From sequence record NC_019517.1: DNA of 64,000 nt; one strand, 5' to 3'. Source of the stretch: Escherichia phage FV3. Made by a program: the position numbers and the translations under genes. How positions within the stretch are numbered: the stretch's first letter is position 1; every line of letters starts with the position of its first letter. This document shows positions 115-4,310 of this stretch, piece after piece. The notes under the pieces are model-generated. The model saw only the letters and a program-made list of their open reading frames with translations. It did not search any database and was not told the origin of the DNA.

Positions 115-144
115 TTGACAAAAGTGTTATTAATCTGATATTAT
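115..144 (+). promoter_or_regulatory. sigma70-like promoter (TTGACA, 18-nt spacer, TATTAT)
   Basis: TTGACA at 115-120 and TATTAT at 139-144, ~35 nt upstream of the first ORF start. Confidence 0.45.
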
Positions 145-177
145 CGTTCAGATATTTATAAACCAGGAGAACTAGAT

Positions 178-486
178 ATGCTTAAAATTTTTATTGTTGA
201 AGATAAAGATATTGTCCAGTTGTATGCAAACGAGAATCATAAAGGTATGATCCTGAAGAAGGCAAGCAACCTTCATGAAAACACAATTCAACCTGGTGAT
301 GTAATTAAGATCTCTGGTTATCTGATACCAGACTCCTTGATGAAAATAACTCATCATTGGGGTTCCAATCCGTTCCTTTTTGAAAAGTATTGGGATGTTG
401 AGTCACTTATTGCAGAAAGTGATGATGCATTCCATTACAGCATCCAACCATCTTGCAGAATAACTAACAGGAGGGTCTTTGAGTAG
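178..486 (+). CDS. hypothetical protein
   Basis: 102-aa ORF with ATG start and AGGAGA-like RBS upstream. Confidence 0.5.
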   Translation: MLKIFIVEDKDIVQLYANENHKGMILKKASNLHENTIQPGDVIKISGYLIPDSLMKITHHWGSNPFLFEKYWDVESLIAESDDAFHYSIQPSCRITNRRVFE

Positions 487-1618
487 AGAATATCCACTTA
501 TTGAGTCCATAGATTGTCTTGCCGATCTTCTTGAACCTGACGCTATAGTCTATTATGACTTCGATCAGGTTGCATATCAAGCTGCAGCAAGTTGTGAAAA
601 AAGGACAATTGAGGTAACACATAAAGCCTCCGGACGTAAGAAGGTGTTCAAAACACGAACAGAGTTTTGGGGGAGGCAGAAGAACGCAGTTGGCGGTTGG
701 TTAAAGGCCGAGAACACCAACCGTGAAGCTGCATGTAAAAAAGCTGGCAAGGAGTTTATTCCGTGGACACGTGAAGATTTCGATGTCTTGGATATCCAAA
801 CCCCTGATCCTGTAGAGAACTGCTTGCACACAATTAAGTGTAAAGCTAACGCAGTCCTTAACTATCTTGGTATTCCTGAAGATCGGTGCGTAGGAGTGCT
901 TGGAGGCACAGGTAATTTCAGACTAGATCTTCCCATGCCGGAACGATATAAAGCCAACCGTAACAATACTCTTCGACCACTGTTGCTTGAAGATGCAAGA
1001 CAGTATCTCCAAAAGCAGTATAACGCTCAGGTGATCAACGGTATTGAAGCTGACGACTGGTTAGCTATCCAGCAATTTGAAGGTTGGAACCACTACCAGA
1101 AAACAGGTAAGTTCAACAAGTTTATTATCTCTATAGATAAGGACCAGCGAACACTTCCTGGGCTTGTATTCGATCCGATGAGGAACGATAAAGGTGATTT
1201 TGTAAGAGAAACTCCTATGCTTATTGATAACGGTATGGGTAACATATTCATGAAACCAAACGGAGATGTTGGTGGGTATGGAATGTTGTTCTTCGGTTAT
1301 CAAATGCTATGTGGTGACTCAGCTGACAATATTAAGCCTTACCAAGGTCTTATTGGTAAAGGAAAGTTTGGAGATGCATCTGCATTCTCCTTGCTGTCTC
1401 AGTGCAGCACACCGAAGGAGATGTGGTTAGCAATCATTGATCAGTATAAAAAATGGTTTCCGAAAGGTGCCGTTAAGTATACTGATTTCAATGGTATTGA
1501 CCGTAGGATTTCCGTAGGTCAGTGGATGAGTATAATTTTCGACTGTTTGTATATGAAGCGATCATTCAATGACCAAACAAAACTTGTTAATGTTCTTAGA
1601 AATGTTGGAGCAATTTGA
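479..1618 (+). CDS. 5'-3' exonuclease / flap endonuclease (FEN family, T4 RNase H / T5 D15-like)
   Basis: 379-aa ORF with FEN-family motifs YKANR and GIEADDW; TTG start after AGGAGG RBS, exact start uncertain. Confidence 0.65.
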   Translation: MSREYPLIESIDCLADLLEPDAIVYYDFDQVAYQAAASCEKRTIEVTHKASGRKKVFKTRTEFWGRQKNAVGGWLKAENTNREAACKKAGKEFIPWTREDFDVLDIQTPDPVENCLHTIKCKANAVLNYLGIPEDRCVGVLGGTGNFRLDLPMPERYKANRNNTLRPLLLEDARQYLQKQYNAQVINGIEADDWLAIQQFEGWNHYQKTGKFNKFIISIDKDQRTLPGLVFDPMRNDKGDFVRETPMLIDNGMGNIFMKPNGDVGGYGMLFFGYQMLCGDSADNIKPYQGLIGKGKFGDASAFSLLSQCSTPKEMWLAIIDQYKKWFPKGAVKYTDFNGIDRRISVGQWMSIIFDCLYMKRSFNDQTKLVNVLRNVGAI

Positions 1619-1941
1619 TGACTAAAAACTCTGTAGATAATGCAATTATGGAAGCTGTTTTTGAGGATGACCATACAACAGGCACCATTAAAACAAAAAA
1701 TACATTTATTGTTGCCACAGGTATGTGGCGGTTGTATGAAGATGACACTATTGCATACATCTTGTATACTGATGATTACGCAGATGATCGTGTATGGTCT
1801 GCTGTTTTAAAAGAGGACTGTGAGCTGATCGAGGGTGAGCGGTTATGCATGTTTACCAGTGTGGAAACAGATGTTAAGCTTTGCTCTCTTGTGTTGTTCA
1901 AAGACAAAGCTTATGCCCCAGATGAAGAGGAAACAGTATGA
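1615..1941 (+). CDS. hypothetical protein
   Basis: 108-aa ORF, start overlaps upstream stop (ATGA). Confidence 0.5.
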   Translation: MMTKNSVDNAIMEAVFEDDHTTGTIKTKNTFIVATGMWRLYEDDTIAYILYTDDYADDRVWSAVLKEDCELIEGERLCMFTSVETDVKLCSLVLFKDKAYAPDEEETV

Positions 1942-2567
1942 GAGAAAGACTGCTGTCTATAGACCAGTCTCTTACCCACACGGCCTGCGTTGTATGGGAC
2001 GATGGTAGGCCTGTTCATAAGGTTGTGTTACGAACCCAAAGCTCGTCTGCAAAAGAGAAGAAACCAGGGACGGTTTCTTTTGCAACAGCTGCTGAGCGTA
2101 TTGACTGGATCTGCAAACAGGTTAGATATTATATCCACACGCACCACGTTGACACCGTGGTCATGGAAGGGCTCTCCTTTGGATCGCGAGGAGATGCCAC
2201 ACGTGAACTGGCTGGGTTGTTTTACGGTCTTGAAGTTATGCTCTGGGATGCTTTAGCAGATTGTGAAAATGACGGCCTGTTTAAGGTCCACACAGTGACA
2301 CCAACAACTGCCAAAAAGTTTGCTCGTAGTCATCTTCCTGAAGAACTTGCTTTTGAGGAGAAGAAAAAGCTTGACAAAAAGACGGGTAAAGAGCATACTG
2401 TGAAGAAGCCTGTTACGATGGATAAAAAGTTGATGGTTAAGGCCTGTGAAGTATCTGAACCTGGGTTCCTAGATGGGATCAATTTGGTACAAGGTAAGGC
2501 CGATCTCGCAGATGCTTATTGGATAGGCAGGGCGCATCTGGAGGGATTATCGCAAAGCGTAAAATAA
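1938..2567 (+). CDS. RuvC-like Holliday junction resolvase (RNase H fold)
   Basis: 209-aa ORF; N-terminal SIDQS...TG..VW, central VVMEGLSFGSRGD and C-terminal ADLADAYWIG acidic motifs typical of RuvC-type resolvases. Confidence 0.55.
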   Translation: MRERLLSIDQSLTHTACVVWDDGRPVHKVVLRTQSSSAKEKKPGTVSFATAAERIDWICKQVRYYIHTHHVDTVVMEGLSFGSRGDATRELAGLFYGLEVMLWDALADCENDGLFKVHTVTPTTAKKFARSHLPEELAFEEKKKLDKKTGKEHTVKKPVTMDKKLMVKACEVSEPGFLDGINLVQGKADLADAYWIGRAHLEGLSQSVK

Positions 2568-3094
2568 GAAAGAAAGCTGTCAAAGCCCCCGTTCATAACG
2601 GGTGGCTAAAAGATTCTAAGGATATAGCCAACTTTCGGAAAGAATTGTCAGAAGAGCAGGATGGTCTTGATCCGATCTTGTGCGAACCACTTCGTAAGCC
2701 TTGTTTAGATCATGATCATCTGACTGGTCGTTGCAGGGGTGTTTTGTCCCAATGCACTAATACCTTTGAGGGGTATGTGCTTAAATACTGGATGAAATAC
2801 TGTAACGAGTATACAGATTGCAGTTTATCAGAGGCGTTGCGCCGGATGGCTGACTATCTGGAGAAAGACTACAGCGACTTCCCGCTCCACAAAAACTACA
2901 GGGACGATATGACAAAGTTCTTGAGGAGATGCTCTAAAGCTACGATTATTGCACGGGCAGAATCGGATCTCGATCTTGTCATTAATTCAGAGTACACCAA
3001 GCATGAGGCTATTGAGGCCTACATGCAGGAGTTTATAAAGAAAACTGAGGAGAGAGATTTCTATGGAGACGAAAAAGGTATTCAATCCTTGTGA
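2519..3094 (+). CDS. recombination endonuclease VII-like (T4 gp49 family)
   Basis: CLDHDHLTGRCRGVLSQCTN matches the endonuclease VII zinc/His-Me motif; no in-frame ATG, TTG start at 2519 overlaps upstream gene by 49 nt. Confidence 0.6.
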   Translation: MDRQGASGGIIAKRKIRKKAVKAPVHNGWLKDSKDIANFRKELSEEQDGLDPILCEPLRKPCLDHDHLTGRCRGVLSQCTNTFEGYVLKYWMKYCNEYTDCSLSEALRRMADYLEKDYSDFPLHKNYRDDMTKFLRRCSKATIIARAESDLDLVINSEYTKHEAIEAYMQEFIKKTEERDFYGDEKGIQSL

Positions 3095-3284
3095 TTCAGT
3101 TCTGATCAGGATGAAATACCGTAACTGGAAAGGTGTTGTTGCAGATCGCTGCGTTACTGAGCCTAGTTTATGGTTTGGCTCTACAGATTATCATAAAGAA
3201 GATCAGTGGTTGATGCATGCATTTGATGTAGACAAGGGCGAATATCGTGACTTCGCTTTAAAAGACATTCTTCAGTTTTACTAA
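3063..3284 (+). CDS. hypothetical protein
   Basis: 73-aa ORF, ATG with GAGGAGAGAG RBS. Confidence 0.45.
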   Translation: METKKVFNPCDSVLIRMKYRNWKGVVADRCVTEPSLWFGSTDYHKEDQWLMHAFDVDKGEYRDFALKDILQFY

Positions 3285-3296
3285 GGAATCTTAACG

Positions 3297-4280
3297 ATGA
3301 TGACAAAGTTAACTCTTGAGCAAATTTTAACACTAAAGCAACAGGGATACACCAATAGACAAATTGCTCGTGAATTTCTAGGTCGTGAGTCACGTGAGAG
3401 CTGGATCCGGCTACAGCTTAAACGTGCACAAGAGAATATGTCAGAGATTGTAGGAGAGGCAACGGAGCGCTTCCTTGAAGAACACAAAGGTGCTAAAGTT
3501 TGGGTGTATGATACAGAGACATCCCCAACAAACGGCTGGTTCTTTGGGCATTATAAGACCAACATTCAAACCTGCGGTATTGAAATTATGCCCTATATGC
3601 TAACTTTCGCAGGTAAATGGTTAGACAGCCCCAGTGTGGTTGACTGTGCTCTTCCTGATTACAAAATGTGGGGCGAGGATATCCACAACGATCTTGAGCT
3701 GATTCAAGATTTGTGGTATTATCTGGATAAATGTGATGTAGCAGTAGCACACAACTCTGGTTTTGACTGTGGGTGGGCCAACCAACGATTTGCATTTCAC
3801 GGTTTGCCGCCAACAAGCCCATACAAAGAGGTTGACACCCTCAAGATGATTAAAAAGGCATTCCGTTTGAATGCAAACACGTTAGAGTATGCATGTAAAT
3901 ACTTCCAACTGGCCCGACAGAAACTAATTGACCACACATTTGAAATGTGGATCAAGTGTGTTCATGGTGATCTTGAGGCGTTTAAACAGATGCGGGAGTA
4001 TAATGTTGGGGACATCTTGTCTCTGGAAGGCCTATATTTGCTGGCGCGTCCGTTTGCTAAGCAGCACCCCAACATGTCGTTGTACTACCAAGATGAGGAG
4101 TCAAAAGTTCGTTGCCCACGTTGTGGTGGAGAACACCTTCACGAGGAAGAGGCTTTGGCGTATACTCAACTGAGTGCATTTAAAACCTACCGCTGCGAAG
4201 GTTGTGGATCTGTTGTTCGTGATCGTAACAACATCCGTACCCGAGAAGAGATGAAAAACACCCTGATTCAGATAATCTGA
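3297..4280 (+). CDS. DnaQ-like 3'-5' exonuclease with N-terminal HTH and C-terminal zinc ribbon
   Basis: 327-aa ORF; HTH-like LKQQGYTNRQIAREF, exo motifs VYDTETS, AHNSGFDCGW, YNVGDIL, C-terminal CPRC...CEGC. Confidence 0.5.
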   Translation: MMTKLTLEQILTLKQQGYTNRQIAREFLGRESRESWIRLQLKRAQENMSEIVGEATERFLEEHKGAKVWVYDTETSPTNGWFFGHYKTNIQTCGIEIMPYMLTFAGKWLDSPSVVDCALPDYKMWGEDIHNDLELIQDLWYYLDKCDVAVAHNSGFDCGWANQRFAFHGLPPTSPYKEVDTLKMIKKAFRLNANTLEYACKYFQLARQKLIDHTFEMWIKCVHGDLEAFKQMREYNVGDILSLEGLYLLARPFAKQHPNMSLYYQDEESKVRCPRCGGEHLHEEEALAYTQLSAFKTYRCEGCGSVVRDRNNIRTREEMKNTLIQII

Positions 4281-4287
4281 CAAGTAG

Positions 4288-4310
4288 AGGGAGGCTTGCG
4301 CCTCCCTTTT
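4288..4310 (+). terminator. intrinsic terminator
   Basis: AGGGAGGC-TTGC-GCCTCCCT hairpin followed by TTTT. Confidence 0.5.

Follow-up and report, generated by a model that had tools for sequence, protein, structure and literature searches.

At which codon does translation of an endonuclease VII (EndoVII) gene begin when its reading frame offers no ATG before the catalytic motif? The question is raised by two adjacent nuclease genes at positions 1938 to 3094 of the 64,000-nucleotide (nt) stretch of Escherichia phage FV3 (NC_019517.1) that is called, in its full length, the window below. An earlier note on this DNA had described a RuvC-like resolvase gene followed directly by an EndoVII-type gene, and both assignments are borne out by profile searches: the open reading frame (ORF) at 1938-2567 matches phrog_159, the RuvC-like Holliday junction resolvases, with E=6e-39, and the frame that follows matches Pfam PF02945 (Endonuclease_7) with 31.8 bits against a cutoff of 23.6 bits, over residues 38-116 of the form counted from TTG 2519, as well as phrog_423 (endonuclease VII) with E=3e-37. 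It is also true, as the same note had it, that the second frame lacks an ATG before its catalytic motif. No stop interrupts the frame from 2498 up to the one at 3092-3094, and TTG 2519, TTG 2645 and TTG 2678 are the only ATG, GTG or TTG codons in it before the LDHDH motif; neither ATG nor GTG occurs there, and the first in-frame ATG, at 2792, lies past the motif. The comparisons described below make it likely that EndoVII is initiated at an AUC codon, at 2549, behind a strong Shine-Dalgarno (SD) sequence GGAGG at 2540-2544. The features on which this proposal turns are the following, with lengths in amino acids (aa).

1938..2567, + strand: RuvC-like resolvase gene; ATG start, 209 aa, stop TAA at 2565-2567; phrog_159 match
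2540..2544, + strand: Shine-Dalgarno GGAGG, inside the RuvC-like codons CTG-GAG-GGA (Leu-Glu-Gly)
2549..2551, + strand: ATC, proposed EndoVII initiation codon, to be read as formylmethionine (fMet); 4 nt 3' of GGAGG and 19 nt inside the RuvC-like gene
2549..3094, + strand: proposed EndoVII gene; 181 aa, with LDHDH at 2705-2719, Asn at 2759-2761, Glu at 2768-2770 and TGA at 3092-3094
2552..2602, + strand: Lys/Arg-rich N-terminal tail (AKRKIRKKAVKAPVHNG), present in all subfamily members and partly overlapping the last RuvC-like codons

The phage from which the window comes is a Vequintavirus, one of the rV5-like myophages of E. coli, and segment 1500-3500 of the window matches 119 phage records with 90-99% identity. 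The junction between the two genes was compared among 30 RuvC/EndoVII loci drawn from IMG/VR, metagenomes and phage collection records, which represent 23 distinct junction sequences and EndoVII identities from 99% down to 47%. With the Ile codon at 2549 as the anchor of these 23 junctions, GGAGG (-9 to -5) and ATC (+1 to +3) carried 1.6-2.0 bits at each position and most flanking positions less than 1 bit. The codon itself is ATC in 22 of the junctions and ATA in the remaining one, from a Henunavirus. A codon alignment in the RuvC frame gave an entropy of about 1.1-1.8 bits for the third positions of the 30 codons 5' of the SD, and values of 0.43, 0.22, and 0.36 bits for those third positions that belong to GGAGG or provide the A of ATC, with 1.74 and 1.53 bits for the third positions lying between them. 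Judged by this alignment, in which no dual-coding signal was found 5' of the SD, the freezing of third positions at GGAGG and ATC is not explained by the coding of the RuvC-like protein.

Several relatives leave little else to start from. No ATG, GTG, or TTG occurs from the opening of the frame to the conserved Trp codon in L002 (EduardKellenberger, 96.5% nt identity), L026, L017 and L035/L041. The junction of L044, which reads cgg agg TAA gta ATC gcc aga, has an in-frame stop two codons 5' of ATC, so that in this locus neither a frameshift nor an upstream start is possible. The SD lies at a workable spacing from the AUH codon in both cases, 4 nt in the window and 6 nt in L044. In L044 the RuvC stop overlaps the start as TAATC, which places the T and C of ATC outside the RuvC gene, and ATC is kept there with TAATG one change away; L022 has the same geometry with ATA. 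In both loci, ATC or ATA has thus been retained though it is free of the RuvC coding constraint. Homologs that start with ATG begin at the equivalent site (MAKRNKVR in P0031, MAKKPIIRK in P0047, MARTSKRR in P0027 and MAVRPARRRR in L045), and CR3 has a GTG start at the site equivalent to ATC 2549, while the start of Vibrio phage 495E54-1 is an ATG that lies within the RuvC-like gene, and that of Aeromonas phage PAc is a TTG directly 3' of the upstream stop. Read from ATC, the window protein would begin (f)M-AKRKIRKK, an N terminus of the same type as those of the ATG-start homologs.

The Lys/Arg-rich tail that follows the proposed start is found in all subfamily members, including those that start at a canonical ATG, GTG, or TTG, and is homologous between genera (KPKARKKPV and KPRARKKPV); the EndoVII model over the tail is of low confidence and disordered. 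Its variable sites are distributed over codon positions 1, 2, and 3 as 10/11/22. Together with the residues W19, I26, and R30, which are invariant in the family, this homology and the excess of third-position changes mark the region 3' of ATC 2549, by comparative criteria, as translated.

Some observations weigh against initiation at AUC 2549 and have to be set beside those given above. The spacing of 4 nt is among the shortest that are workable, and TTG 2519 is in frame and open in the window, which would permit an N-terminally longer form in this phage. A GTG or ATG stands just 5' of the Gly-Gly codons in some lineages (MGGDI... in P0003, MGGEI... in P0021 and MFLGGKI... in P0016), and in lineages of that kind GGAGG could be mere coding sequence. 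The codon-position test on the linker is modestly significant, with p ~0.05 as estimated from the 10/11/22 counts. The conserved RuvC-like residues Leu-Glu-Gly-(Leu/Ile/Val)-Ser are a partial confounder of the conservation seen at GGAGG and ATC, but the synonymous freezing and the junctions of L044 and L022 argue for a constraint beyond Leu-Glu-Gly. The literature offers no direct evidence either: the rV5 genome paper is silent on the EndoVII gene and its proteomics covers the virion only (PMC3606486), no N-terminal peptide or ribosome profiling (Ribo-seq) record was found, and our literature search returned no paper on this start codon or on the nuclease pair in Vequintavirinae, no analysis or test of an AUC start of EndoVII, and no published justification for the start codons chosen in the rV5 and GAP31 records. 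Those choices, and the other codons that have been or could be taken as the start, are as follows.

2519..2521, + strand: TTG, candidate start, judged unlikely; no SD, TAG in relatives
2546..2548, + strand: ATT, judged less likely than ATC; SD too near, codon variable
2645..2647, + strand: TTG, rejected; 3' of W19, I26 and R30
rV5 RefSeq gp093 (NC_011041): annotated start ATT, equivalent to 2546
GAP31 RefSeq GAP31_151 (NC_019400): annotated start ATC, equivalent to 2549
Murica and FFH2: annotated start TTG, equivalent to 2519
EduardKellenberger: annotated start TTG, equivalent to 2645
NHEP1 and JES2013: annotated from an internal ATG (in NHEP1 equivalent to 2792), a catalytically empty fragment
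4MG, KNP2 and pEp_SNUABM_01: annotated start 3' of the RuvC-like stop, GTG in pEp_SNUABM_01
HMD-6: EndoVII gene not called

The TTG at 2519 lies exactly 49 nt inside the RuvC-like gene, as stated in the earlier note, which had named this codon or some other non-canonical one as the start. Initiation there would give a protein of 191 aa beginning with MDRQGASGGIIAKRK, and the codon has the attraction of standing in the open frame and of having a TTG or GTG as its equivalent in most Vequintavirus and sister-clade genomes, for which gene callers choose it (P0001 with 219 member sequences, P0002 and P0004). The non-canonical nature of the start stands, but TTG 2519 itself is unlikely to serve as that start: the 20 nt 5' of it hold no purine-rich SD, the TTG or GTG is a by-product of the conserved RuvC-like Tyr/Leu-Trp-Ile-Gly codons, around which RuvC-frame third positions vary freely with no sign of dual coding, an in-frame TAG follows the equivalent codon in L002, L026, and L005, all of which are >92% identical in protein, and the equivalent is missing in Seunavirus, Mydovirus-like phages, Henunavirus, and L017/L035/L044. 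The ATT at 2546, from which rV5 gp093 is annotated, would be an AUU start as in infC and pcnB, and no non-canonical start besides AUU has been confirmed in E. coli genes (bioRxiv 10.1101/063800). It lies, however, only 1 nt past GGAGGG (2 nt past the GGAGG core), too close for SD-directed placement in the ribosomal P site, and relatives replace it with TTT, TAT, GAT, GTT, AGT, GCT, or CCT while conserving the next codon, ATC; we regard it as a very unlikely start. That the protein is truncated, starting at TTG 2645 or ATG 2792, and that the open frame 5' of these codons is meaningless, is highly improbable, even though automated gene callers chose these codons in several GenBank records and T4 gene 49 also yields a shorter product from an internal start. 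A product from ATG 2792, which lies past LDHDH, Asn, and Glu, cannot be a nuclease, and one from TTG 2645 would drop the invariant W19, I26, and R30 together with the segment homologous to residues 2-30 (helix 1) of T4 EndoVII, and the Lys/Arg-rich tail 5' of TTG 2645 is conserved at the protein level. Lineage-specific GTG codons in the linker (at APV in L005, at AVK in L006-9 and at VVV in Seunavirus) were considered as starts and rejected: they are not conserved and would cut the conserved tail, the window has GTC and GTT at these sites, and L037 and L042 are without GTG.

The last alternative dispenses with a second start altogether. The earlier note had raised the possibility of a recoded or fused product, which could arise if a programmed -1 frameshift late in the RuvC-like gene, such as a slip of tRNA-Lys on A_AAA_TAA at 2561-2567, gave a RuvC-EndoVII fusion. 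In every Vequintavirinae junction the EndoVII frame is indeed offset by -1 from that of RuvC, and in the window AAAA stands just before the TAA stop with GGAGGG 15 nt 5' of it. The constant frame relation is, however, to be expected because the EndoVII start lies inside conserved RuvC codons, and the slippery run lacks conservation: it is missing from L006, L016, L017, L022, and L044, and no slippery motif common to the 23 distinct junctions was found. At the junction of L044 both frames carry stops, which leaves no open path for a shift, the EndoVII frame of Vibrio phage 495E54-1 is +1 to RuvC and has its own ATG, and in Certrevirus and the Aeromonas relatives other genes lie between the two nuclease genes. 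The homolog sets scanned for fusions, 48 EndoVII protein clusters (129-207 aa) and 33 RuvC-like ones (157-230 aa), hold no fused ORF. A recoded fusion is therefore improbable in the extreme, and the proposal of the earlier note is not upheld on this point. An RNA hairpin that hides the SD was also considered and rejected, in that the minimum-energy fold, which pairs 2505-2515 with 2533-2543 (z = -2.0), has a partner sequence that is missing in the sister clade. In this hairpin (GCAGAUGC / GCAUCUG, 2505-2543), GGAG 2540-2543 of the SD is paired with 2505-2507, and the minimum free energy for 2505-2615 is -32.6 kcal/mol; on comparison with the sister clade it is probably not a conserved element.

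Initiation at AUC 2549 would yield a protein that resembles T4 EndoVII (gp49; PDB 1EN7, 1E7D, 2QNC; PF02945) in its catalytic residues. A profile built from 11 subfamily members, with T4 excluded, finds T4 EndoVII (1E7D/1EN7) with E=2e-9 over T4 residues 13-149. The predicted structure has a pLDDT of 75, and its only Foldseek match in the PDB is T4 EndoVII, with 150-155 columns aligned; the template-modeling (TM) score against T4 EndoVII is 0.33-0.38, a low value, as would be expected for a monomer model set against the extended, domain-swapped chain of T4. In an alignment of 21 sequences, T4 included, L53, D54, H55, H57, N71, and G75 do not vary, and at least 90% of the sequences keep E74. 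The equivalents of T4 D40, H41, H43, N62, E65, and R54/G55 are kept in the window protein, and its C-terminal part aligns with the helical (dimerization) region of T4 EndoVII. Differences are found elsewhere. The columns of the T4 zinc cysteines C23, C26, C58, and C61 hold D, L, S, and T in the window protein, and no zinc-ligand column is conserved as Cys in the subfamily, of which a few members keep Cys, at the C23 column only; going by this alignment, the window EndoVII would belong to a branch of the family that has no zinc site. T4 EndoVII, for its part, is without the 17-residue Lys/Arg-rich N-terminal tail carried by the window protein, and the window gene, unlike that of T4, would have a non-AUG start codon within the gene before it. 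Cleavage of branched DNA, as by T4 EndoVII, is the activity expected of the window protein from these similarities.

The 3' end of the gene is variable as well. In most relatives the EndoVII ORF extends 30 nt past the window stop, and a CGA-to-TGA change at 3092-3094, shared with L005, ends the window protein 10 codons before those of rV5, Murica, and HMD-6. The same change reads as a synonymous TGC-to-TGT change in the overlapping gene at 3063-3284. Because of this early stop in the window and in L005, the last 10 residues (RFSSDQDEIP) appear dispensable.

The catalytic codons of the partner gene, the RuvC-like one, are as follows.

1962-1964 (D9), 2166-2168 (E77), 2502-2504 (D189) and 2511-2513 (D192), + strand: RuvC-like catalytic codons, identified by homolog conservation

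Across 30 homologs, which also underlie the AlphaFold model, D9 is kept in at least 90% and E77, D189, and D192 are invariant, with the motifs DQS, ME.LS, and DxADA in the expected order. We infer from this order of motifs, and not from residue-by-residue superposition, that the acidic tetrad is equivalent to D7, E66, D138, and D141 of E. coli RuvC. The model has a mean pLDDT of 92.5, and the top 11 hits of a structure search of the PDB are bacterial RuvC proteins (E 5e-8 to 1e-5, TM by target 0.72-0.79); the matches include T. thermophilus RuvC bound to a Holliday junction, the D. radiodurans, P. aeruginosa, and E. coli enzymes and also phage bIL67 RuvC and Ydc2. At the sequence level, no Pfam match at E<=0.1 was obtained for this protein, so that the threshold for PF02075 was not reached, and a sequence search of the PDB found nothing; among the RuvC-like homologs, PF02075 is carried by the distant P0078 and P0080 only. 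Compared with RuvC (PDB 4LD0, 1HJR, 4KTW; Pfam PF02075), the window protein shares the RNase H-like RuvC fold and the acidic order D...E...D..D, but has an additional Lys/Glu-rich insertion of about 45 residues (roughly residues 130-165), which is missing in the short homologs that bear PF02075, and is without a sequence match in Pfam or the PDB. From conservation and modeled structure, the ORF at 1938-2567 is taken to encode a RuvC-fold nuclease with an intact acidic tetrad, of which Holliday-junction cleavage would be a putative activity. The earlier note had proposed the alignment of catalytic residues as a means of doubting either gene, and these residues are intact in both proteins. A sigma-70-like site was noticed within the RuvC-like gene, at 2371-2399 (TTGACA, 17 nt, CATACT; 10/12 matches), about 150 nt 5' of the EndoVII start. 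This consensus match, if real, could provide a separate EndoVII transcript.

Why should a phage carry two nucleases of this kind? The RuvC-like/EndoVII pair is syntenic in Vequintavirus, Seunavirus, Mydovirus, Henunavirus, Certrevirus (with one gene inserted), Aeromonas phage PAc (Plateaulakevirus), and an unclassified Vibrio phage, and it recurs in all Vequintavirinae-like loci taken from IMG/VR and metagenomes; the arrangement is not due to chance, and it is an ordinary one that is already present in databases. The earlier note had called the two nucleases redundant, which is doubtful, because their joint retention across several genera and outgroups argues, on comparative grounds, that both genes are under selection and that their roles are non-redundant. 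One possibility, by analogy with T4 gp49, is that the RuvC-like enzyme resolves junctions while EndoVII performs broad debranching, mismatch, or packaging clean-up. In loci of the Certrevirus type (L023 612-1154, L018 and L045), the gene inserted between the pair has no similarity to RuvC and encodes 180 aa as annotated in CR3, and its 3' end is overlapped by the EndoVII start, which is a canonical GTG or ATG. The surroundings of the pair in the window are as follows.

3063..3284, + strand: small downstream gene; 73 aa, phrog_3715, overlapping the EndoVII 3' end by 32 nt
115..4309, + strand: probable transcription unit; promoter-like site, 115-144; terminator-like hairpin, 4286-4309; both from consensus scans only

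The unit at 115-4309 contains a 102-aa ORF (178-486), an exonuclease gene, a small ORF, the RuvC-like gene, the EndoVII gene, a small ORF, and a DnaQ-like exonuclease gene, which are tightly packed or overlapping, as in TGATG at 1616-1620 and ATGA at 1938-1941. The 73-aa phrog_3715 protein adjoins EndoVII in all relatives examined, and it shows a sub-threshold likeness to the WYL and WYL_2 SH3-like beta-barrel domains (E ~0.01-0.05).

The database records themselves gave rise to two side observations. Under the name "Campylobacter phage" (host C. jejuni; MG065644 A147 and MG065690 A135 are examples) there are twenty records that match 1500-3500 with at least 90% nt identity, and three of them listed among the matches are ~95-96% identical to that segment. 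These records are without annotation, some are only 35-60 kb long, and they look like mislabelled or contaminant rV5-like genomes. In addition, P0053, a protein of 187 aa with 89% identity to one half of the RuvC-like protein, has the entry "hypothetical protein N5V81_22020 [Escherichia coli]" and lies on a contig of 122 kb, which is probably an rV5-like phage genome deposited within a bacterial assembly.

If EndoVII is initiated at AUC 2549, the nearest known parallels would be the AUU starts of infC and pcnB, which are the only confirmed natural non-canonical starts in E. coli (bioRxiv 10.1101/063800). As in those genes, the near-cognate codon of the window differs from AUG at the third base, has a good SD 5' of it, and is expected to initiate at a low level. 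It would differ from them in being AUC (AUA in Henunavirus), in lying inside the 3' end of another gene, and in being kept across several phage genera; for the window EndoVII there is no evidence of an IF3-type autoregulation. AUC, AUA, AUU, and CUG give ~1-2% of the initiation obtained with AUG in E. coli, with an N-terminal Met still being made (bioRxiv 10.1101/063800), and the Phage Annotation Guide lists ATT and ATC among recognised phage starts (PMC8785237).

The arrangement as a whole can be considered as follows. Two branch-cleaving nucleases would be translated separately from one operon, as part of the replication/recombination module of Vequintavirus. The RuvC-like gene would start at its normal ATG at 1938, and GGAGG within its Leu-Glu-Gly codons would direct a ribosome to AUC 2549, giving a 181-aa EndoVII that begins fMet-Ala-Lys-Arg-Lys... 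and consists of a basic tail with a T4-like catalytic core behind it. As a nuclease T4 EndoVII is both promiscuous and toxic, and the purpose of the weak AUC, at ~1-2% of AUG, would probably be to keep such an enzyme at a low level. Selection for a weak start therefore seems the most economical explanation for the retention of ATC or ATA even where ATG is only one mutation away. Ribosomes that translate or terminate on the RuvC-like gene might also couple EndoVII synthesis to it, which is plausible because the RuvC-like stop lies near ATC in all junctions examined (at -2 to +32 nt) and because the operon is tightly overlapping. We infer the actual use of AUC, low expression as a selected trait, the coupling, and distinct in vivo roles of the two enzymes from the comparison of sequences. 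With respect to the wider claim, we lean slightly toward the view that the AUC, conserved through Vequintavirus, Seunavirus, Mydovirus-like phages, and related genera, is an evolved throttle that limits translation to ~1%, with the SD fixed in the C-terminal Leu-Glu-Gly codons of the RuvC-like gene and a fixed, very unequal ratio of the two nucleases, set by translational coupling, as the outcome.

The AUC start is, in view of the junction comparison, well conserved and probably functional, used in one RefSeq record and mis-annotated in many genomes. Its recognition would correct a recurrent annotation error in the GenBank records of rV5-like phages that are therapeutic candidates, where the same gene has been given at least six starts, reduced to dead fragments, or omitted. 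If confirmed, it would be one of very few verified starts that are not AUG, GUG, or UUG within an E. coli system, and the first with AUC, and the locus would offer a natural and easily testable case of AUC initiation in an E. coli phage. It would also exemplify a start signal placed inside the coding sequence of a neighboring gene as a means of setting a low level of a dangerous enzyme. An EndoVII branch that apparently has no zinc site, carries a basic tail, and always occurs with a RuvC-like nuclease may, in addition, provide a handle on how the labor of DNA debranching is divided in large lytic phages.

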